DNA of 9,093 nt from a virus (taxonomy: Duplodnaviria; Heunggongvirae; Uroviricota; Caudoviricetes): IMG/VR virus record IMGVR_UViG_2537561928_000018; one strand, written 5' to 3'. The translations under genes were made by a program, and so were the position numbers. A model generated the notes under the pieces. That model was given only the letters and a program-made list of their open reading frames with translations. It was not told the origin of the DNA and did no database searches. Positions 584 through 9,093 of the stretch are shown piece by piece. How positions within the stretch are numbered: the stretch's first letter is position 1; every line of letters starts with the position of its first letter.

Positions 584-637
584 TAAGGTTACAGAGTCAA
601 CTGTGAAGAGACTTGTCAGTTCTCTATATATATGGCT

Positions 638-680
638 AATTACAACTTATTGAAAAATAAGAACTTTTAGAAATTACTGT
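638..680 (+). repeat. 43-bp imperfect direct repeat, copy 2
   Basis: See copy 1; shared core ttgaaaaataag...ttttagaaat.actgt. Confidence 0.6.
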
Positions 681-1012: not shown

Positions 1013-1140
1013 ACATAGTTGATTCGGTTAGTTGGGCTTGTACCAACCCCTATCGAATAAACCTCATAGCCACGCCTTTATATTTTACTCTCCCCATAGA
1101 ACCATTATACCACAGATGTTAATAAAATGTTAAAAAATAC

Positions 1141-1179
1141 TTGACATTAGTCTTTGAAAATGCTAGTATTGTATATATA
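1141..1179 (+). promoter_or_regulatory. Sigma70-type promoter P1: TTGACA, 17-bp spacer, extended -10 TGcTAGTAT, then TGTATATATA box
   Basis: Seen in sequence: ttgaca at 1141-1146, tgc-tagtat at 1161-1169, tgtatatata at 1170-1179; located about 50 bp upstream of the 1221 start codon. Confidence 0.55.
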
Positions 1180-2057: not shown

Positions 2058-2272
2058 TGCTATGCGTTACCTTTGAATACCACACGGATAAAATGATTCG
2101 CCACATCTCCGACCTCCTGATTAAGGGAAACGGATTCGGTGACATCCATAACTCAAAAGATATTTTCATTAAAGCCATTGGCCCAAATGAAGTACTGAAA
2201 ACAGCAGTTAAACCGGAATGGTTTGAGCGTCACAAGATTGAATTAGGTTATTGGGGTGAGGAGGTTTTATGA
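2057..2272 (+). CDS. Hypothetical protein, 71 aa
   Basis: ORF track; start overlaps upstream stop (TAATG); GGAGG 4 nt upstream; stop overlaps next start (ATGA). Confidence 0.6.
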   Translation: MLCVTFEYHTDKMIRHISDLLIKGNGFGDIHNSKDIFIKAIGPNEVLKTAVKPEWFERHKIELGYWGEEVL

Positions 2273-2556
2273 AACCTTGGCATGAAGATGTTAGACGATA
2301 TTTTACAGAACACCTTATCTATGATGAATCCAGTGATTCCCTGTGCTGGTCTGATGGAGAGTCAGTCACGATAAATACCGACGACTACGGCAACAAAACA
2401 TTTAATATAGGCCGATATACTTTCTACGTGAAATATGTTGTCTGGTTCCTTTATCATGGCTATCAATCCAACAAGCAAATTATCCATCGAAATGGTAACA
2501 GAGCCGATACCAGACCAAAAAATCTTATGCAAGTCCGAGACTTTAAGAGAAATTAG
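2269..2556 (+). CDS. Minimal HNH-family endonuclease, 95 aa
   Basis: ORF track; SD GGTGAGGAGG 4 nt upstream; C-terminal motif IIHRNGNRADTRPKNLMQV matches the H-x-x-G-N...N-L signature of phage-type HNH endonucleases, preceded by YVKYVVWFLYHG; recalled family pattern, not searched. Confidence 0.7.
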   Translation: MKPWHEDVRRYFTEHLIYDESSDSLCWSDGESVTINTDDYGNKTFNIGRYTFYVKYVVWFLYHGYQSNKQIIHRNGNRADTRPKNLMQVRDFKRN

Positions 2557-2711
2557 AAAAATAGCTTCTCAGGCGCTCTCAATCGCATTCTAACGCAAAA
2601 AACTATCTTATTTTAGGGTGGGTAATACCACTGTACAGGCTACCCCTGAAAAAGACTGTTTAGCTCGTTACAGAGCGATTGAGGAGGTCTGGTAAAAAGG
2701 AGATTTTAAAA

Positions 2712-3035
2712 ATGAACAATTACCCATTACAGATTTTCGTTGATAACGACACCGCTATGATGATTCAGGCTTTCACTGATGTAGGTGTTAGCATTGACTT
2801 TGACAGGCTGTTAAGGCTAATGGCTGATAACTCAGAAGTAATTGAAGACTTTATTCAGTCGGTGGAGTTTAACGAGCCTCGAATGATGCTACCAATTATA
2901 GACAGCAACATGAAAAGATTGGTTATCGAGCAAACGAACAAATACAGTATTAGCCCTGAAAGATATCTCAAGGCAGCTATAGCAATTTTGTACGCTGACA
3001 ATATTTTGGTGACGGATTCGAAGGTGGTGCATTAA
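2712..3035 (+). CDS. Hypothetical acidic protein, 107 aa from the ATG (ORF track begins at TTG 2679)
   Basis: ATG at 2712 has SD AAGGAG 9 nt upstream, preferred over the TTG at 2679 which overlaps a GAGGAGG; D/E-rich; no family recognised. Confidence 0.65.
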   Translation: MNNYPLQIFVDNDTAMMIQAFTDVGVSIDFDRLLRLMADNSEVIEDFIQSVEFNEPRMMLPIIDSNMKRLVIEQTNKYSISPERYLKAAIAILYADNILVTDSKVVH

Positions 3036-3100
3036 TGGAATTGGTGATTATCTGTTTTGTATTGATTGGTATGATTGCAGGTGCATCTATTAAAGTATAA
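3035..3100 (+). CDS. 21-aa hydrophobic micropeptide MELVIICFVLIGMIAGASIKV (not in ORF track)
   Basis: Seen in sequence: ATG overlaps upstream TAA (TAATG); strong SD AAGGTGG 5 nt upstream inside the end of the preceding gene; one predicted transmembrane-length hydrophobic stretch; stop TAA at 3098-3100. Confidence 0.4.
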   Translation: MELVIICFVLIGMIAGASIKV

Positions 3101-3125
3101 ATGTTACCAATCTGTTAAAAAGCTG

Positions 3126-3164
3126 TTGACAAATAACCTTGAGCATGACATAATTGTATATATA
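3126..3164 (+). promoter_or_regulatory. Sigma70-type promoter P2: TTGACA, 17-bp spacer, extended -10 TGaCATAAT, then TGTATATATA box
   Basis: Seen in sequence: ttgaca 3126-3131, tga-cataat 3146-3154, tgtatatata 3155-3164; same architecture as P1. Confidence 0.55.
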
Positions 3165-3243
3165 GGGAGAGCAATTCTCCTTGAATTAAAATATTAATCG
3201 TCTCTACATCGATGATAACTATATTCTGAGTTGGAAAGGTGCA

Positions 3244-3420
3244 ATGCTTTTCGTCATGGCCTTTCAGGTTAGTCTGAGAGGCTATCTCAAAAAGTGCTTA
3301 ATCATTCATTCATTGAACCCTTTACAGCTTTGCCCTAATCATGAGTTAGGGCGTTTCTTTAAGAGTTTTCAAACAGAACTTTTAAAGAAAGTTTTTCCTG
3401 AAACTTCGTTAACGTTATAA
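3244..3420 (+). CDS. Candidate small ORF, 58 aa, basic (alternatively an untranslated leader or small RNA)
   Basis: ATG at 3244 with stop TAA at 3418-3420; lies between P2 and a hairpin at 3432-3473; SD weak (AAAGGTG only 2 nt from the ATG); just below the ORF-track length cutoff. Coding status uncertain. Confidence 0.25.
   Translation: MLFVMAFQVSLRGYLKKCLIIHSLNPLQLCPNHELGRFFKSFQTELLKKVFPETSLTL
3332..3360 (+). terminator. Terminator-like hairpin gccctaa / ttagggc with tail gtttcttt
   Basis: 7-bp perfect stem, 7-nt loop, T-rich tail; located inside the candidate 58-aa ORF or leader, so it may be an attenuator rather than a gene-end terminator. Confidence 0.35.
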
Positions 3421-3431
3421 AGCAAACCTCC

Positions 3432-3480
3432 AAAGCCCTTCACAGATGAGGATGAACCTATGTTTAGGGCTTTTCTTTAT
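3432..3480 (+). terminator. Terminator-like hairpin aaagccct / agggcttt with tail tctttat
   Basis: 8-bp stem but a large 26-nt loop, followed by a T-rich run; begins 12 nt after the stop of the candidate small ORF. Confidence 0.3.
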
Positions 3481-3573
3481 AGAGCATCTTTAATAAATCG
3501 TTAAGTCATCTTCTAAGTGTATTGGCGTTGAAGGTGCTCTATTAAGAAATAATCACACTTAGAGGAAATTATA

Positions 3574-4284
3574 ATGACAAATGATATTTACATTAATGGC
3601 AGAAAGGTTGATAGCTTCGGTGACTGGTCGCCACAGACTGAACATCCAGCTATCACTATTCAGCGTAAAGAACACGATGAAAGAATTAAGCTTGAGCAAT
3701 CGTTAAAGATGTCACCAAAGGTAATTTCCTTTGTGTCTCCTGAGCCTCAAGAAATGCCAGATATCTGCAAAAGTGAAGCACTATTTAATCTTGAGCGTGA
3801 ATATTACCCACAGTTAAAAGCACAGCGTATTAAACTTGATGACGCTTACAGCAAAGTTACCCTGATGCAATCAGCTATTGAGCCGTCAGAATTTGAGATT
3901 CAGGATGAATTGTCACAGAAACCATTTGTCTATTACCAATACGAAGATAATGATGGTTTTGGTACTTTTCCTGAGAATATCCCAGACGTGATTAATAATC
4001 TTCCTGACGGATATCGAATTGTGAAGATGGTTAAAGCTTCAAGGGGTGCTGGTCAATTTATTTATATGACTAATAAGAGCGATGAAGAACTCTGTGAACT
4101 TGCTAGACAGAACATCTTGGCATCACGTAACAAGCAACTTGAAAATGTTAAGTTGTATCTCTCAAGAGAGCTTCAGGCTATGAAAGAACTTGTTAGTGAA
4201 TATGAATCACAGAAGAAGATTGCTATGCAAGCCGATATTGAGCAGTTAATGAAGATTTCTCAGAAATATGCAAAGGCTATTTGA
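3574..4284 (+). CDS. Hypothetical protein, 236 aa
   Basis: ORF track; SD AGAGGAAA 5 nt upstream of ATG; predicted helical, charged C-terminal third; no family recognised. Confidence 0.75.
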   Translation: MTNDIYINGRKVDSFGDWSPQTEHPAITIQRKEHDERIKLEQSLKMSPKVISFVSPEPQEMPDICKSEALFNLEREYYPQLKAQRIKLDDAYSKVTLMQSAIEPSEFEIQDELSQKPFVYYQYEDNDGFGTFPENIPDVINNLPDGYRIVKMVKASRGAGQFIYMTNKSDEELCELARQNILASRNKQLENVKLYLSRELQAMKELVSEYESQKKIAMQADIEQLMKISQKYAKAI

Positions 4285-4292
4285 GGTGATTA

Positions 4293-4601
4293 ATGAATGA
4301 TTTAACAGAACGCGATAAAAGAATTAAAGGGGTGATGGAACCTTTTGAAGATAGGTTCAATGAAATTAAAACGACTCTTGGTGATATTCAGGAGGTCACT
4401 GAATATCTTATTGGTCGTATGGACGAAAAGCCTCTTGCCGAACTAAAGTGTGATGGTCGGGATGATTTAACGCGACTTCTTATCGAACTCAAGGATAAGA
4501 TAAATAAGCTTGATACTGTGTATTATCAAACTGGTCTTTCACTACGTTATGAAATTCAAAAGAATGAACGCGGTGTCGAGTGTATACACTACTTAGATTA
4601 A
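4293..4601 (+). CDS. Hypothetical protein, 102 aa, N-terminus MNDLTER
   Basis: ORF track; SD GAGG 6 nt upstream; N-terminus paralogous to the next gene. Confidence 0.7.
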   Translation: MNDLTERDKRIKGVMEPFEDRFNEIKTTLGDIQEVTEYLIGRMDEKPLAELKCDGRDDLTRLLIELKDKINKLDTVYYQTGLSLRYEIQKNERGVECIHYLD

Positions 4602-4626
4602 AATCGAATTAAAAAGGAGGTGGTGA

Positions 4627-4830
4627 ATGATTGATTTAACAGAACGCTATGAACTCATCAAGGCAATTAGTGAACGACTGAAAGAACAACCCAACAAACC
4701 AAAACGAATCAAATCATCCACCTCTAAGCAAAATAACAGAATCAGAAGAATCGCTAAATGGTGTCTTGATAAATTACCAAGTGATTGTCAGATTGTTGGT
4801 GAAGATGGCAATTATTATCTGGTTGGGTAA
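4627..4830 (+). CDS. Hypothetical basic protein, 67 aa, N-terminus MIDLTER
   Basis: ORF track; strong SD AAGGAGG 6 nt upstream; K/R-rich middle region. Confidence 0.65.
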   Translation: MIDLTERYELIKAISERLKEQPNKPKRIKSSTSKQNNRIRRIAKWCLDKLPSDCQIVGEDGNYYLVG

Positions 4831-4855: not shown

Positions 4856-4897
4856 GGGAGAGATTATCGAGTGACATCGGTAGTTTCTCCCTTTTTT
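4856..4897 (+). terminator. Hairpin gggaga / tctccc followed by tttttt, putative intrinsic terminator
   Basis: 6-8 bp stem, roughly 20-nt loop with internal complementarity, then a T6 run; lies between the 67-aa gene and the tape-measure-like gene. Confidence 0.45.
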
Positions 4898-4904
4898 GTA
4901 TGTG

Positions 4905-4970
4905 TGCTACGTGAAATCTGTAAAGCTAATACCCACACTGAAAAATAGAATTTACGTACAACACGCTTAA
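4905..4970 (+). promoter_or_regulatory. Conserved 66-bp intergenic element, copy A (upstream of the tape-measure-like gene)
   Basis: Shares the ordered blocks tgctacgtgaaatct ... atacccac ... aaaaat ... tttacgta ... cacgcttaa with copy B at 7049-7114; first 15 nt identical. Confidence 0.5.
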
Positions 4971-4988: not shown

Positions 4989-7037
4989 ATGAGCAAATTT
5001 ACAGTTGATAGTTTTATCGTTGAATTAGGCTTCAGTGAAAACGTTGTTAAAGGCTTGCAAAGAGTTGAAAAGGCAGCTTTGCAGTCAGCACAAAGAATTG
5101 AAAAGAACCTAAATAAAGGTTTCAGGATTAATACAAAACAGCTTGATAGTAATTTGACAAGTTCTTTAGGGCAACTTGAAAGGAAGTTTAATAAGGCTTT
5201 TGACAAGATTGAACAGAGAGCAAGAAGCACAAAAGCTTTCCGTTTCACAAGTCAGGTTAATGACGCTATTAATCCTCCAAAACAACCAAGACAGCCACGA
5301 ATTAGCGGAAACAGAGCAATCACAGCAGCTTACTCAGCGAATATGAGCAAGTTAAAGGGCTTTGACCCTGTTTTGCAGAAATACATCAAATCTCAGTTTT
5401 ACGGGCTATCTGCTAAAGCTGGTCAGATGGATAATTCAAAATTCAATGAGAAGCTGGCTCAGTTAAATGCTTCAGTCAGAGAAGCAATTGCTAAAGCTAA
5501 AGGTCATACATCCACCAGCATTAACGGTGACAGAGCAGCTAATAGTCTTGATAGTTTGAGTTCAGCAGCAGTTAAAACAGCAGGTGCATTTATCAGCTTT
5601 CAGGCTGTACTATCCGCTTATCAGAAGATTATGGAAGTTGGCCTTCAACGTGCATCATCGGAAAGAAGTATTGATTTCGTATTCGGTGACCAAAGTACAC
5701 AGGTCAAAAAGTTCATTCAAGATTTAACTCAAATTACTGGTATGGACACAACCGAAACACAAGCACAGTTTGCTTCATTTGGTGCATCTGCAAAAAATAC
5801 GATGGGTCTTGAAGGCTCAGAGGAATTATTTAAAAACTTAACTGGATATGCCCGTTTAATGGGTCGTTCAGATGAGCAGATTCAAAGAGCATTAACCGCA
5901 GTATCGCAGATGGCTTCTAAGGGTCAGGTGATGGCTGAAGAGCTTAAGGGGCAACTATCTGAAGCTTTACCGGGTGCTACTCAGGCATTTGCAAAGGCTT
6001 TAGGTCTGACTGAAAAACAGCTTTTCGATAAGATGAAAAATGGTGATGTTAAAGCCTCTGATGCACTCCCTAAGTTTGCTAAAGAACTTGGTTCACAGAT
6101 TAATTCCAGAGGTGGCTGGAAAGCTATTCAGGACTCTACGCAGACGATGTTAGGGAACTTAAAGAATACTTGGAACAACTCACTAACGGATATCTTCAGA
6201 GGTTCTGAAAATGGTCTTCAAGATTTCACAAGAAGCTTAACAACGCTTTTAAATAGTCTTGGTGGGAGTGGTAAAACATTAGGTGAAAGTCTTGGTAATC
6301 TCATGACTTCTATGTCACACGGTGTCGATAACCTGACTGATATTAGTTACAGGGTAAGGGCGTTCTTTGACGAGGTGACATTGGCTTATCGTGGTTTAAC
6401 CGATGAACAAAAGAAAGTTGTTGATGCTTTAGGTTCTGGCTTGATTAATAGTTTAAAAGTCTTGGCTGGTGTTATTGCTGTAAATAAAGTTGTTGGTGTA
6501 ACCAGAAGTATTTACGGGCTTATGACTGCTATCACAAGATTAGGTCAGGTCGCTGATACTACAGCGGATAACGTGAATAGAAAGAACGGGAAACCATCAA
6601 GGTTTAATCTTGGGAATATGCTATTAGCTGGTAGTGCTATCTATGCAGGTTATGAAAGATTAGCCTCTACACCTGAACGAATGGAAGCACAAGCTAAATT
6701 ACCAGAGCTGGCTAAAGAGTCTGGACTTAAGCCAGTATTTACTATGGACGATGTGAAAGGTTGGTTTAATAGTGCAGCTATGAATCTTGCTAACTTCCAG
6801 CATCCAGAATTAATCACCATGAGACAAGATGCGGCATTAACGAATACGGATATCCAAAGCCTGAGAGATGAAATTAGTGCTTTGAGCAAACGTATTCAGG
6901 AGCCTGTGAAAGTTTCACTTGGTGGTGAAGTTGCCATTAAACCAGATGAAACCAGCTTTATGACCTTTAGCAGTAATATCTACGACCAATACGCAGAAGC
7001 TACGCTATTAAGTTCATCATTCCCAGAAGATGATTGA
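4989..7037 (+). CDS. Tape-measure-like protein, 682 aa
   Basis: ORF track; residues about 300-368 (ALTAVSQMASKGQVMAEELKGQLSEALPGATQAFAKALGLTEKQLFDKMKNGDVKASDALPKFAKELG) match my recollection of the conserved core of phage tail tape-measure proteins (SKG.V.AEEL..QL.E.LPGA...A.A.G pattern); A/Q/K/L/S-rich helical composition. The only SD (AGAGGTG) is about 11 nt upstream of the ATG. Confidence 0.6.
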   Translation: MSKFTVDSFIVELGFSENVVKGLQRVEKAALQSAQRIEKNLNKGFRINTKQLDSNLTSSLGQLERKFNKAFDKIEQRARSTKAFRFTSQVNDAINPPKQPRQPRISGNRAITAAYSANMSKLKGFDPVLQKYIKSQFYGLSAKAGQMDNSKFNEKLAQLNASVREAIAKAKGHTSTSINGDRAANSLDSLSSAAVKTAGAFISFQAVLSAYQKIMEVGLQRASSERSIDFVFGDQSTQVKKFIQDLTQITGMDTTETQAQFASFGASAKNTMGLEGSEELFKNLTGYARLMGRSDEQIQRALTAVSQMASKGQVMAEELKGQLSEALPGATQAFAKALGLTEKQLFDKMKNGDVKASDALPKFAKELGSQINSRGGWKAIQDSTQTMLGNLKNTWNNSLTDIFRGSENGLQDFTRSLTTLLNSLGGSGKTLGESLGNLMTSMSHGVDNLTDISYRVRAFFDEVTLAYRGLTDEQKKVVDALGSGLINSLKVLAGVIAVNKVVGVTRSIYGLMTAITRLGQVADTTADNVNRKNGKPSRFNLGNMLLAGSAIYAGYERLASTPERMEAQAKLPELAKESGLKPVFTMDDVKGWFNSAAMNLANFQHPELITMRQDAALTNTDIQSLRDEISALSKRIQEPVKVSLGGEVAIKPDETSFMTFSSNIYDQYAEATLLSSSFPEDD

Positions 7038-7048
7038 TAATAGTCGAA

Positions 7049-7114
7049 TGCTACGTGAAATCTTCTGAACAGATATACCCACCAAAAATTATTTTTTACG
7101 TAGCTCACGCTTAA
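7049..7114 (+). promoter_or_regulatory. Conserved 66-bp intergenic element, copy B (upstream of the 258-aa gene)
   Basis: See copy A; begins 12 nt after the stop of the tape-measure-like gene and ends about 80 nt before the ATG at 7195. Confidence 0.5.
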
Positions 7115-7194
7115 CAGAGAAAACACTTATATATCAAAGGCTTGGTTAAAAATGATTAAAATACACTAAGTCTTTGAAATCAAAGGAGAATTTA

Positions 7195-7968
7195 ATGATT
7201 TACTCTAACCAAATCAAATATAGTGGCAAAGATGGCATCTATTTCCACTTAAGAGATAATGTAGATGCCTTCTTAACCTTATCAGCAACTGAAAACATGG
7301 AATTTGACAGCCCTATGCAGGTAACTACACAGAACATGCAATCAGGGCAAACCGTCACAGATAATGTGCAAAGAGCACCCAGAACAATCACTATTAGTGG
7401 TGTCGTTGTAGTTGGCTATGAAGGAAGTTTATTATTAACTCGTCAGGGTCAATTAGTAGAAAACTTCATTGACACTCTCGAAAGCTGGCGTGACCAGAAG
7501 CAAATTATTTCGGTCATCTGTAAAGACGGTATCAAGATTGATGACTCCATTATCACGAGTTTTAAAGCCTCTAAAGATGTTGGAATTTCAAACGGCTTAA
7601 GAATCCAATTAACTTTTCAGGAAATTAACTTTAAAGCTATTGTGGGTCAGACTGATATCTCGGCTGCGACCGGAAGGACTTCTACCACAAGTGATGGTGG
7701 TGCTACCAGTAAAAAGAATACTGGTAATACTACAACAAGTCTAGGTAATGGTATGTTGCTGTGTCAGGAGCTATATAATCGCTCTACGAGTGAACTTTCT
7801 AATGAGCAACTTCAAGCCCGTATCAATTGTGGTAGAAGTGTCAAAGTTGAGAATGGAAAAAGCACCTTCTCAGATGCCGCTAATGAGCAAGCTTCAAAGG
7901 CGCTTAATAATGCTGGTACAGGTAATGTTTTGAAGAGGCTTTCTGTGAATCCTAACAAGCGCTACTGA
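7195..7968 (+). CDS. Hypothetical protein, 258 aa from the ATG (ORF track begins at TTG 7174); possibly tail-associated by position only
   Basis: ATG at 7195 has SD AAGGAG 6 nt upstream, and the TTG at 7174 would overlap it; contains an S/T/G-rich linker ([28 protein letters not shown]) between two regions; no family recognised. Confidence 0.7.
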
Positions 7969-7982
7969 CGATAGAATCTCAA

Positions 7983-8678
7983 CTATATGATAACCTCATC
8001 AACATCTATTAAACCCCTCTCAGTGACTTCAGAAAGCGACTGTATAGCCTCTGTAACGTCCTCTGAGGGGTTTTCTGTTATTGGTAAGGTGATTGCTCTA
8101 CCGTTGTGAAAAGTTACTTTACAGCGACGTTTAGCAGTATTTAAAACGACCTCTTTAACAGCACTTTTGATTATCAGTTGTGCTTCAATCCTTCCCGCCT
8201 TTGTAGTCAAGTCACAATCAGACAAAGAGCCTGTATCGATAGACTTAAGCCGCTGTGTCTCCTTCTCGATATCCGCATCAACCTGTGATAGCTCACCTTT
8301 TAACTGTTTTAGTTTGCTGGTAATAGCGGACAAGTCTTCAATTTCAAGTGATAGCTGTACCAGCTTTTCAATATTGTTTGAGATGTGTTCACGGTGTAGC
8401 TTCAGTGTGTCTATGGTATTCGTCGTATCGCTATCAAATCGGTCAAGACGAGATAGCAGGGTAAGTAATGTACCATCGGTTTGCTTACGTGAAAGTCCTT
8501 TAGCACTACAACGGTTTTCATTACGAAGGGGACAACGATAAATCCCGTTTCTTGTATTGCTAAAGCCTGTGATAATCAGAGCATGACCACATTCAGAACA
8601 ACGGATAACACCTTTAAAGAGATTCACACTCAATGGTTTATCTGAAGCAGGTTTTCGACCGTAACGAGAATGTGATAG
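7983..8678 (-). pseudogene. Large serine recombinase, 3' fragment (zinc-ribbon plus coiled-coil region); 5' catalytic part displaced by the IS3 insertion
   Basis: Minus-strand frame is open from the IS3 boundary with no credible start (track start at 8633 is a TTG); Cys pattern RCSECGH...YRCPLRNENRC followed by a long heptad-like coiled coil is typical of the C-terminal region of large serine integrases; about 230 aa is too short for a complete enzyme. Confidence 0.7.
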
Positions 8679-8743
8679 TGATCTTACCCAGCAATAGTGG
8701 ACACGCGGCTAAGTGAGTAAACTCTCAGTCAGAGGTGACTCAC

Positions 8744-9043
8744 ATGACAAAAACAGTATCAACCAGTAAAAAACCCCGTAAACAGCATTCGCCTGAATTT
8801 CGCAGTGAAGCCCTGAAGCTTGCTGAACGCATCGGTGTTACTGCCGCAGCCCGTGAACTCAGCCTGTATGAATCACAACTCTACAACTGGCGCAGTAAAC
8901 AGCAAAATCAGCAGACGTCTTCTGAACGTGAACTGGAGATGTCTACCGAGATTGCACGTCTCAAACGCCAGCTGGCAGAACGGGATGAAGAGCTGGCTAT
9001 CCTCCAAAAGGCCGCGACATACTTCGCGAAGCGCCTGAAATGA
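8744..9043 (+). CDS. insE: IS3 OrfA (transposase N-terminal / regulatory protein), 99 aa from the ATG
   Basis: Translation MTKTVSTSKKPRKQHSPEFRSEALKLAERIGVTAAARELSLYESQLYNWRSKQQ... is the IS3 OrfA sequence as I recall it; the track start at 8735 is an upstream GTG. Confidence 0.85.
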   Translation: MTKTVSTSKKPRKQHSPEFRSEALKLAERIGVTAAARELSLYESQLYNWRSKQQNQQTSSERELEMSTEIARLKRQLAERDEELAILQKAATYFAKRLK

Positions 9044-9093
9044 AGTATGTCTTTATTGAAAAACATCAGGCTGAGTTCAGCATCAAAGCAATG
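9040..9093 (+). CDS. insF: IS3 OrfB (transposase catalytic part), 5' end only
   Basis: ATG overlaps the insE stop (ATGA); translation MKYVFIEKHQAEFSIKAM matches the IS3 OrfB N-terminus as I recall it; truncated by the window edge. Confidence 0.8.
   Translation, partial: MKYVFIEKHQAEFSIKAM

Follow-up and report, generated by a model that had tools for sequence, protein, structure and literature searches.

The 9,093-nucleotide (nt) stretch of DNA analysed here (the window; IMG/VR virus record IMGVR_UViG_2537561928_000018, Caudoviricetes) carries an island in which small genes precede tail genes related to those of Felix O1-like phages (Felixounavirus). The first operon consists of five small genes, and the second consists of the genes for proteins of 236, 102 and 67 amino acids. 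The intergenic region between the two operons contains a sigma-70 promoter (P2), a series of hairpins followed by U-tracts (T1, a mid hairpin and T2), an open reading frame (ORF) of 58 amino acids and a long hairpin (H6) that lies just ahead of the Shine-Dalgarno (SD) region of the 236-amino-acid gene, named here by its start at 3574 (Table 1). This region was compared among 13 Escherichia coli loci taken across the whole BLAST ranking, 12 IMG/VR loci and 97 metagenome loci fetched via an exact match to the promoter, giving a total of 110 leaders, 103 of them distinct.

Table 1. Features of the leader region, followed by other features of the window, with predicted folding energies and z scores where given.
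Feature	Position	Strand	Description
TGTTA direct repeats	3102-3106, 3113-3117	+	11 bp apart, then an A-run just 5' of the -35; may be a regulator site or an UP-like element
P2, sigma-70 promoter	3126-3154	+	TTGACA (3126-3131), 17 nt, CATAAT (3149-3154); extended -10 TG (3146-3147)
H1, 5'-terminal stem-loop	3163-3183	+	8 bp, loop GCAAU; -8.5 kcal/mol, z -3.1
Conserved structured domain	3228-3330	+	about 105 nt; -34.1 kcal/mol, z -3.8
Invariant 20-mer GAAAGGTGCAATGCTTTTCG	3234-3253	+	resembles an SD sequence plus ATG; forms parts of two stems
58-amino-acid ORF	3244-3420	+	ATG start; not a conserved coding sequence
H3, long hairpin	3247-3294	+	-20.3 kcal/mol, z -5.0
T1, intrinsic-terminator-like hairpin	stem 3332-3352, UUUCUUU 3354-3360	+	-11.7 kcal/mol, z -3.9
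Mid hairpin	3354-3390, UUUUU 3392-3396	+	16-bp AU-rich stem; -14.0 kcal/mol, z -4.1
T2 hairpin	3432-3473, then UUUUCUUUA (to 3479)	+	GCCCU/AGGGC core; -14.1 kcal/mol, z -2.3
H6, long near-perfect hairpin	3472-3549	+	21-bp stem, reaching 27 bp in relatives; -30 kcal/mol, z -8.0
Apical anti-SD segment of H6, UCUUCUAAGUGU	3509-3520	+	12-nt run complementary to 3555-3566
SD region ACACUUAGAGGA and start codon of the 236-amino-acid gene	3555-3576 (SD region 3555-3566, start codon 3574-3576)	+
Direct repeat, 48 nt	536-583, 633-680		83% identical; lies in the long left-hand non-coding region (1-800), which also has several hairpins
Divergent promoters	1104-1169		both with extended -10; leftward TTAACA-18-TATAAT, rightward P1 TTGACA-17-TAGTAT
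HNH endonuclease gene	2269-2556		Pfam match; shortly upstream of the leader region
21-codon hydrophobic ORF (MELVIICFVLIGMIAGASIKV)	3036-3101		overlaps the stop of the 107-amino-acid gene (TAATG); no RefSeq annotation
Intrinsic terminator	4856-4891		15-bp stem, six consecutive T's; between the 67-amino-acid and tape-measure genes
Direct repeat D1, 66 nt	4905-4970, 7049-7114		71% identical; directly upstream of the tape-measure and Dit-like genes
Serine recombinase remnant	7983-8633		only the C-terminal 216 codons left
IS3-type OrfA	8735-9043		after the recombinase remnant (IS3 copy)

P2 deviates from the sigma-70 consensus at only one of 12 positions and has an extended -10. Sites with at least 11 of 12 matches and an upstream TG are expected by chance at 0.013 per dinucleotide shuffle; 4 of 300 shuffles had any, and the window has two. 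As classes, neither promoter-like sites (19 found against 23.9 expected) nor terminator-like sites (7 against 5.8) are enriched in the window, so that the argument depends on how good the matches are, where they lie and how well they are conserved. P2 is almost identical in 14 BLAST-sampled loci, and in the most distant BLAST relatives (hits H108-H110) only the segment equivalent to window 3093-3179 still aligns. P2 is not a chance match. Its sequence would place the transcription start near 3161-3162, and the -10 is followed by AT-rich sequence with -10-like hexamers (TGTATA/TATATA here, TTTAAT or GGTAAT in relatives). No promoter-like site with at least 9 of 12 matches was found on the plus strand between 3155 and 3970, and a relative lacking T1 and T2 likewise has no other promoter-like site ahead of its counterpart of gene 3574.

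The layout TGTTA-N6-TGTTA-AAAA-N3/4-TTGACA of the P2 region is also present at P1 (window 1116-1146), where it is kept in 46 family loci, P1 not having been used for retrieval. At P2 the TGTTA element is nearly invariant among the BLAST-sampled loci, 4 of the 14 differing by a substitution that falls in the first repeat or in the spacer. In the window's island, P1 and P2 are also followed by an identical TGTATATATA after the -10. The shared TGTTA-N6-TGTTA-A-run suggests a common control at the promoter level, perhaps by a small protein of the first operon. Two further candidates were rejected at this site: a T7-like promoter (TATAGGGAGA, 3161-3170), whose upstream specificity region is mismatched and for which Felix O1 encodes no polymerase, and an antisense promoter with the TGTTAA repeat as its -35, the -10 of which is not conserved in relatives.

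The 416-nt leader downstream of P2 is predicted to fold with -127 kcal/mol, against -87 kcal/mol in shuffles (z = -7.0), and the leader of a relative with another set of modules and no canonical terminator reaches a z of -6.5. Each hairpin is individually significant against shuffles, and H1, H3, T1, T2 and H6 are retained despite sequence change. H1 begins 2-3 nt 3' of the predicted start; a purine-rich 5' hairpin is found in 110 of 110 leaders, with about 24 stem variants that retain pairing (for example, GGGAGAG/TTCTCCT, GGAAGAG/TTTTTCC, GGGAAGAG/CTCTTCCT and AGAGAG/CTCTCT). It is followed by a single-stranded linker (3184-3226), which is the least conserved stretch, and then by the conserved domain, which ends 2 nt ahead of T1. 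The closing stem of this domain, GAGUUGGAAAGG with CCUUUACAGCUU, encloses H3. In the alignment, 94% of the cells of H3 are paired, against at most 69% in slid controls; GC, GU and AU pairs replace one another at alignment columns 29-59 and 30-56, and the covariation score of 0.132 (0.111 in shuffles) is reached by 0 of 500 shuffles. Three unrelated apical sequences of H3 all form a hairpin. G-U pairs in several stems indicate that selection acts on the RNA of the plus strand. When the whole window was searched with 4227 Rfam models, no family was found at E<=1 and no known riboswitch or cis-regulatory RNA was matched; scans of the window for transfer RNA and transfer-messenger RNA found nothing.

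The invariant 20-mer within the domain, with a k-mer conservation of 93-100% that is not due to the way in which the sequences were collected, is unique within the window at up to 3 mismatches. It gives one strand to each of two stems: GAAAGG is paired with a distal CCUUU in the minimum free energy fold of 77 of 79 distinct sequences, and GCUUUUCG with CRAAAAGU. GCUUUUC has alternative partners, either GAAAGGU upstream (RNAalifold consensus) or CRAAAAGU downstream (77 of 79 single-sequence folds); these partners are invariant, and covariation is uninformative. The 58-amino-acid ORF, which begins within the 20-mer, had been put forward in an earlier, sequence-only reading of this DNA (the initial annotation) as a possible small regulatory protein. 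This proposal has to be given up. From the conserved ATG, the ORF extends over 5-58 codons in 106 relatives, the commonest lengths being 12 and 5 amino acids and the full 58 being kept in 2 of 106. Frameshifts and stops differ among relatives, the position of the stop with respect to the hairpins is not kept, and no Pfam or PHROG match was found. Because length, frame and stop are not conserved and there is no family match, the ORF is not a gene but a by-product of the sequence. Nor does the leader contain a conserved ORF that would choose between hairpins, as a leader-peptide attenuator does; the start is invariant, and the ORF varies.

T1 is found in 78 of 110 leaders, in 18 variants that keep the stem (including an A-U to G-U change) around a variable loop. 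Its U-tract forms the 5' arm of the mid hairpin, which is present in 61 of 110. A regular expression for a hairpin followed by a U-tract matched 91 of 110 leaders, some of these matches being T1, so that the true number for T2 is lower. The loop of T2 ranges from about 8 to 45 nt among relatives, and in about 15 of 110 leaders the T2 hairpin has no U-tract. A strong sigma-70 promoter followed by a short leader that ends at an intrinsic terminator is found here and in about 86% of the family leaders.

H6 is the most significant single element of the leader, and its 5' arm overlaps the T2 U-tract. Three sequence versions of the proximal leader accompany three versions of the 236-amino-acid protein, which are about 25% identical to one another, and all three unrelated versions form H6 with a stem of 21-27 bp (36, 41 and 9 distinct sequences of v1, v2 and v3, respectively). 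In each version, the apical loop is complementary to its own SD region: UCUUCUAAGUGU with ACACUUAGAGGA in v1, CCUCUUCUAAG with CUUAGAAGAGG in v2 and UUCACCUCU with AGAGGUGAA in v3. The complementary run has a mean length of 11.8 nt in v1, 11.6 nt in v2 and about 8-9 nt in v3. The mean cognate duplex has a predicted energy of -16.5 kcal/mol, against -7.1 +/- 2.7 kcal/mol for shuffled loops, and v3 paired with v1 or v2 gives weaker duplexes (-5.8 to -10.2 kcal/mol). At the level of sequence, the loop-SD complementarity co-varies across the three versions. Because it reaches past the purine core of the ribosome site, it is not mere SD/anti-SD resemblance. This covariation places the leader and the coding region of gene 3574 on one RNA and argues for translational gating. 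Since H6 overlaps the T2 U-tract and ends only about 25 nt before the start codon, another promoter would not fit in between. H6 is also a possible substrate for RNase III: a stem of at least about 20 bp and complementarity to the SD region, as in RNase III-processed leaders that mask the SD sequence, are both present.

The leader is 281-496 nt long across the family and is built from optional modules, namely two hairpin insertions of 28-29 nt and the T1-mid-T2 block. The two insertions seen in leaders of relatives (L002 ~9060-9090; L004 ~9130-9160) are a 29-nt hairpin (GAGGATAGTCTTCTATCC...) directly after the transcription start and a 28-nt segment (GGTATGTTCTATACCGAACAT) ahead of the invariant 20-mer; the combinations vary, and the window has neither insertion. 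Because P2, H1, the domain and H6 are retained even in the roughly 15 of 110 leaders that lack a canonical terminator, the universal role is that of a promoter plus leader. The universal parts are the promoter, the 5' hairpin, the domain and H6, and terminators are commonly added to these.

The features of the sequence, how far they are conserved, the statistics of pairing and the lack of conservation of the ORF are direct observations. Their best explanation, in which reasonable but not high confidence is placed, is that 3102-3576 is one unit, consisting of P2 and an approximately 410-nt cis-acting 5' leader of the second operon of the island, with terminators and a mask over the ribosome site. 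Host RNA polymerase with sigma-70 would start at P2, near 3161, and the RNA would open with a protective 5' stem-loop, after which the domain of about 105 nt would fold. In the window's island, the polymerase would then meet three successive sites of a hairpin and a U-tract, namely T1, the AU-rich hairpin and T2. Most transcripts would end there, giving RNAs of about 195, 235 and 315 nt, and only read-through polymerases would reach the genes of the second operon. In the read-through RNA, the apical loop of H6 would pair with the SD region of the first gene and thereby form a second gate, on translation. This block could be lifted if RNase III cut the long stem or if the RNA refolded. It is a tentative proposal, somewhat more likely wrong than right, that read-through is raised by a factor, through antitermination encoded by the island or by a helper phage. 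It is rather doubtful that read-through is constitutive and leaky, with control exerted at the promoter via the TGTTA repeats.

The initial annotation had placed P2, the 58-amino-acid ORF, T1, T2 (3432-3480) and the gene start at 3574 where they are found here, and P2 proves to be a rare and conserved match. It had seen no convincing sigma-70 promoter directly in front of 3574 and had suggested that the second operon is reached by transcripts that pass the hairpins, by read-through or antitermination. Both points agree with the finding that the hairpins are conserved RNA features and that there is no other promoter, and T1 and T2 fold as predicted. The span that it gave, 3126-3480, contains real features but is too short, since the unit extends to the start codon and includes a translational element; its list of features was correct but lacked the mid hairpin, H1, the domain and H6.

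Several points weigh against the terminated and masked leader as an explanation. By two scanners, about 15 of 110 leaders (~14%) have no canonical terminator, and conditional termination is thus not the whole story. The U-tracts of T1 and T2 are interrupted (UUUCUUU and UUUUCUUUA). Of the 110 sequences, 96 were retrieved by the exact promoter match, so that promoter conservation among them is by construction; the parts of the leader 3' of the promoter are free of this retrieval bias. Support from covariation is modest, all sequences belonging to one genus and being mosaic, and three pairs of H3 have double changes, a count that 53 of 500 shuffles reach. No antiterminator candidate was found, and in Pfam and NCBIfam the upstream proteins match neither the Q nor the N families. 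Finally, the transcription start, the 3' ends of the RNAs and their possible cleavage are all predicted, and termination and regulation are likewise deduced from the DNA.

A more specific possibility is processive antitermination of the lambda PR'/Q or N/put type, in which a factor, or the conserved RNA domain itself, would modify the polymerase at P2 or on the leader so that it ignores T1, the mid hairpin, T2 and possibly the terminator at 4856-4891 during helper infection. In lambda PR'-6S RNA-tR', the promoter lies after regulatory genes, a leader of about 200 nt runs to an intrinsic terminator, and the genes beyond are expressed via read-through. The island resembles the lambdoid PR'-qut-6S RNA-tR' arrangement in having a strong, constitutive-looking sigma-70 promoter of near-consensus sequence after small, regulator-sized genes, a terminated leader of about 200 nt, and morphogenesis-related genes downstream that would be reachable by read-through only. 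In addition, several terminators in series would suit a processive mechanism, as would the position of the conserved domain immediately before T1. The genome of Felix O1, which represents the presumed helper group, has host-type promoters, encodes no polymerase and uses that of the host, and has many rho-independent terminators, and the timing of its transcription is unexplained (PMC3185647). However, none of the five proteins of the first operon matches an antiterminator in Pfam, PHROG or NCBIfam, no island protein matches the Q or N families, and the 107-amino-acid protein encoded upstream of the leader is acidic, has no sequence match in the PDB and gave an unusable single-sequence AlphaFold model (predicted local distance difference test, pLDDT, 42). 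Neither boxA/boxB nor put sequences were matched, and the Rfam search was empty at E<=1. Unlike at PR', there are up to three terminators, which family members may have or lack, and an additional anti-SD hairpin precedes the first gene. The -10-like hexamers after the -10 of P2 could at most correspond to the sigma-dependent promoter-proximal pause element of a Q-type unit. Such a mechanism is therefore considered unlikely, although not far-fetched. In its most extended form, P2 and the domain of about 105 nt would be a new antitermination switch by which undescribed Escherichia satellites or tail-interference islands sense Felixounavirus, with a phage or island factor, or the RNA itself, overriding the terminators and the operon acting with the tape-measure and Dit-like genes to hijack or poison helper tails; this picture is speculative and improbable as a whole.

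Another possibility, itself quite unlikely, is that the stretch from P2 to T1/T2 serves mainly as a small RNA gene in its own right, whose product of about 195-315 nt acts in trans on targets of the host, the island or the helper phage, read-through being incidental. A strong promoter followed by tandem terminators, the 5' hairpin and the stable structured body would all fit such a gene. At the IsrK locus of the Gifsy-1 prophage, one promoter serves two transcripts, a short RNA that is terminated and a read-through mRNA whose own structure keeps it translationally inactive; pairing in trans with the short RNA activates this mRNA (PMC4825925). P2 is likewise predicted to serve both a short terminated RNA and a structurally masked read-through mRNA, and this precedent keeps a dual role open. 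Unlike IsrK, to which there is no sequence relationship, the short form here has no above-chance complementarity to the distal leader (-34.4 kcal/mol, against -37.4 +/- 4.6 kcal/mol in shuffles). The conserved parts of the leader are paired and the linker is its least conserved stretch, which leaves no conserved seed, and searches for a complementary target in the window and in 50,697 phage records, Felixounavirus among them, were negative. The complementarity of 3295-3313 to the start of the 102-amino-acid gene is equal in quality to 30 other chance inverted pairs. The conserved single-stranded seed and the long uninterrupted U tail of Hfq-type small RNAs are thus both missing, and the terminator-less members of the family also speak against a small RNA gene.

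It is very unlikely that the hairpins are mainly terminators of the first operon, transcribed from P1 (at 1141), with P2 being fortuitous or vestigial and the second operon being expressed from a helper-phage-specific, non-sigma-70 signal. T1 is indeed the first terminator-like site on the plus strand after P1, and the tape-measure and Dit-like genes are each preceded by a conserved non-sigma-70 repeat (D1). However, P2 is the best-conserved segment of the intergenic region, which is unlike a vestige, and D1 is not present in the leader. The loop-SD covariation places the RNA 5' of 3555 on the gene's own transcript, and the distance between H6 and the start codon leaves no promoter space. That the conserved stretch acts as DNA, as a packaging site, replication origin or recombination site, is highly improbable: the island needs such sites somewhere, and the stretch lies shortly downstream of the HNH endonuclease gene, HNH genes adjoining cos sites in some phages, but the G-U pairs and GC/GU/AU exchanges fit a plus-strand RNA and not DNA cruciforms, the loop-SD complementarity co-varies, and the left non-coding region with its 48-nt repeats is a better candidate.

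The terminated and masked leader has partial counterparts in two further groups of known systems. In P4 immunity, transcripts from the constitutive PLE promoter undergo premature termination using Rho, and the CI RNA is derived from the leader; C4 of P1/P7 is an antisense RNA. As in these systems, a mobile element would hold an operon off by ending constitutive-promoter transcripts in a structured leader. In contrast to them, there is no match at E<=1 here to Rfam, which presumably includes a C4/CI family, and no internal complementarity of the seqA/seqB/seqC type beyond local hairpins; the sites here look intrinsic, whereas P4 uses Rho. The other group is that of RNase III-processed phage leaders that mask the ribosome site, such as the lambda N leader and the hairpins of T7 early mRNA. 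Here too, a stem of more than 20 bp lies just 5' of the gene and the ribosome site is able to pair with part of the element. Unlike in these leaders, the masking sequence is in the apical loop, which would make a pseudoknot-type contact, and not in the stem.

Window region 2600-4400 is 100% identical to the chromosomes of many E. coli strains and is absent from plasmid and phage records, DNA searches of 2600-4400 and of 3093-3330 against phages and plasmids having given nothing meaningful. The intergenic region is matched in 477 of 5,426 complete E. coli genomes (~9%). In strain WCHEC020031, an island of about 15 kb splits yecE and has a large serine recombinase gene at its boundary. The island, which is 11-15 kb in size across the family and confined to Escherichia, integrates via this large serine recombinase. 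The gene order is shared by related islands, which are inserted in yecE as well, beside ymdF, or between yciI and tonB. An alignment of the 236-amino-acid protein against one genome per bacterial species gave a single further locus, in another Escherichia, and hence no cross-genus covariation. The island begins with variable cargo, a small leftward gene, the divergent promoters, the five small genes including that for the HNH endonuclease, and the intergenic region studied here; these are followed by the 236-amino-acid gene, the 102-amino-acid gene where present, the 67-amino-acid gene, a strong terminator, the tape-measure gene, the Dit-like gene and the recombinase gene. In the window, the recombinase gene is truncated and followed by an IS3 copy, and this copy of the island has probably lost its mobility. 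The copy in WCHEC020031 has IS2 inserted in its tape-measure gene and an IS21-like element in its recombinase gene.

At the DNA level, the Dit-like gene shares 94-95% identity with Felixounavirus. The tape-measure protein of the island (682 amino acids) is 29% identical to a 747-amino-acid Felixounavirus protein, with which its N-terminal 26 amino acids and the C-terminal LLSSSxPEDD are conserved. The tape-measure gene is followed by the Dit-like gene (window 4989-7968; relative L125 2737-5777), which is the order in the tail module of that phage group. The tail genes, the large serine recombinase and the multiple integration sites make this look like an undescribed satellite or tail-interference island that targets Felix O1-like phages. 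Searches of the island proteins against Pfam, PHROG, NCBIfam and PADLOC matched only HNH, the N-terminal domain of the tape measure, Dit-like, a weak sub-threshold DndE-like model and a homing-endonuclease model (in a cargo protein). The 236- and 107-amino-acid proteins had no match to phages by tblastn, and a PDB sequence search with the same two proteins returned designed-repeat noise only.

Several other features of the island were observed beside the leader. Because of the strong terminator at 4856-4891 before the tape-measure gene, the second operon probably ends there. Its 102- and 67-amino-acid genes have a common 37-nt start region that is 86% identical (4283-4319 and 4617-4653) and N-termini of MNDLTER and MIDLTER, and these shared start regions and N-terminal residues mark them as paralogues. 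They sit where the phage has its tail-assembly chaperone genes, and several relatives lack the 102-amino-acid gene. At the end of the first operon, the 21-codon ORF is probably a real small membrane peptide; relatives carry 25-26 codons at the same position, different in sequence yet hydrophobic. The 66-nt repeat D1 contains an imperfect inverted repeat, GCTACGTGAAA...TTTACGTAGC, and a 15-nt core, which is kept in 43 family loci and missing from the stretch of phage DNA retrieved; D1 may serve in late control or in processing. An origin, a packaging site or an accessory site for the recombinase could lie in the left non-coding region (1-800).

No relevant paper was found in the literature on the island, on satellites of Felix O1-like phages or on the conserved sequence strings, and in the RefSeq records examined no annotated feature lies under any match to the intergenic region. 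The RNA leader family is new, and its kind, a terminated regulatory leader with a masked ribosome site, is familiar; what is new is that an optional cascade of terminators, a loop-SD contact that co-varies and an invariant domain further upstream occur together. A false small-protein call is thereby removed, and an RNA family is defined that could join Rfam. This unannotated conserved regulatory RNA lies at a control point between the regulatory and the tail-related halves of the island. If the leader responds to infection, it would provide a handle on how such islands stay silent and then fire, and also on the timing of Felix O1-like transcription, which has been called unknown (PMC3185647). 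The island itself may be the more interesting object.

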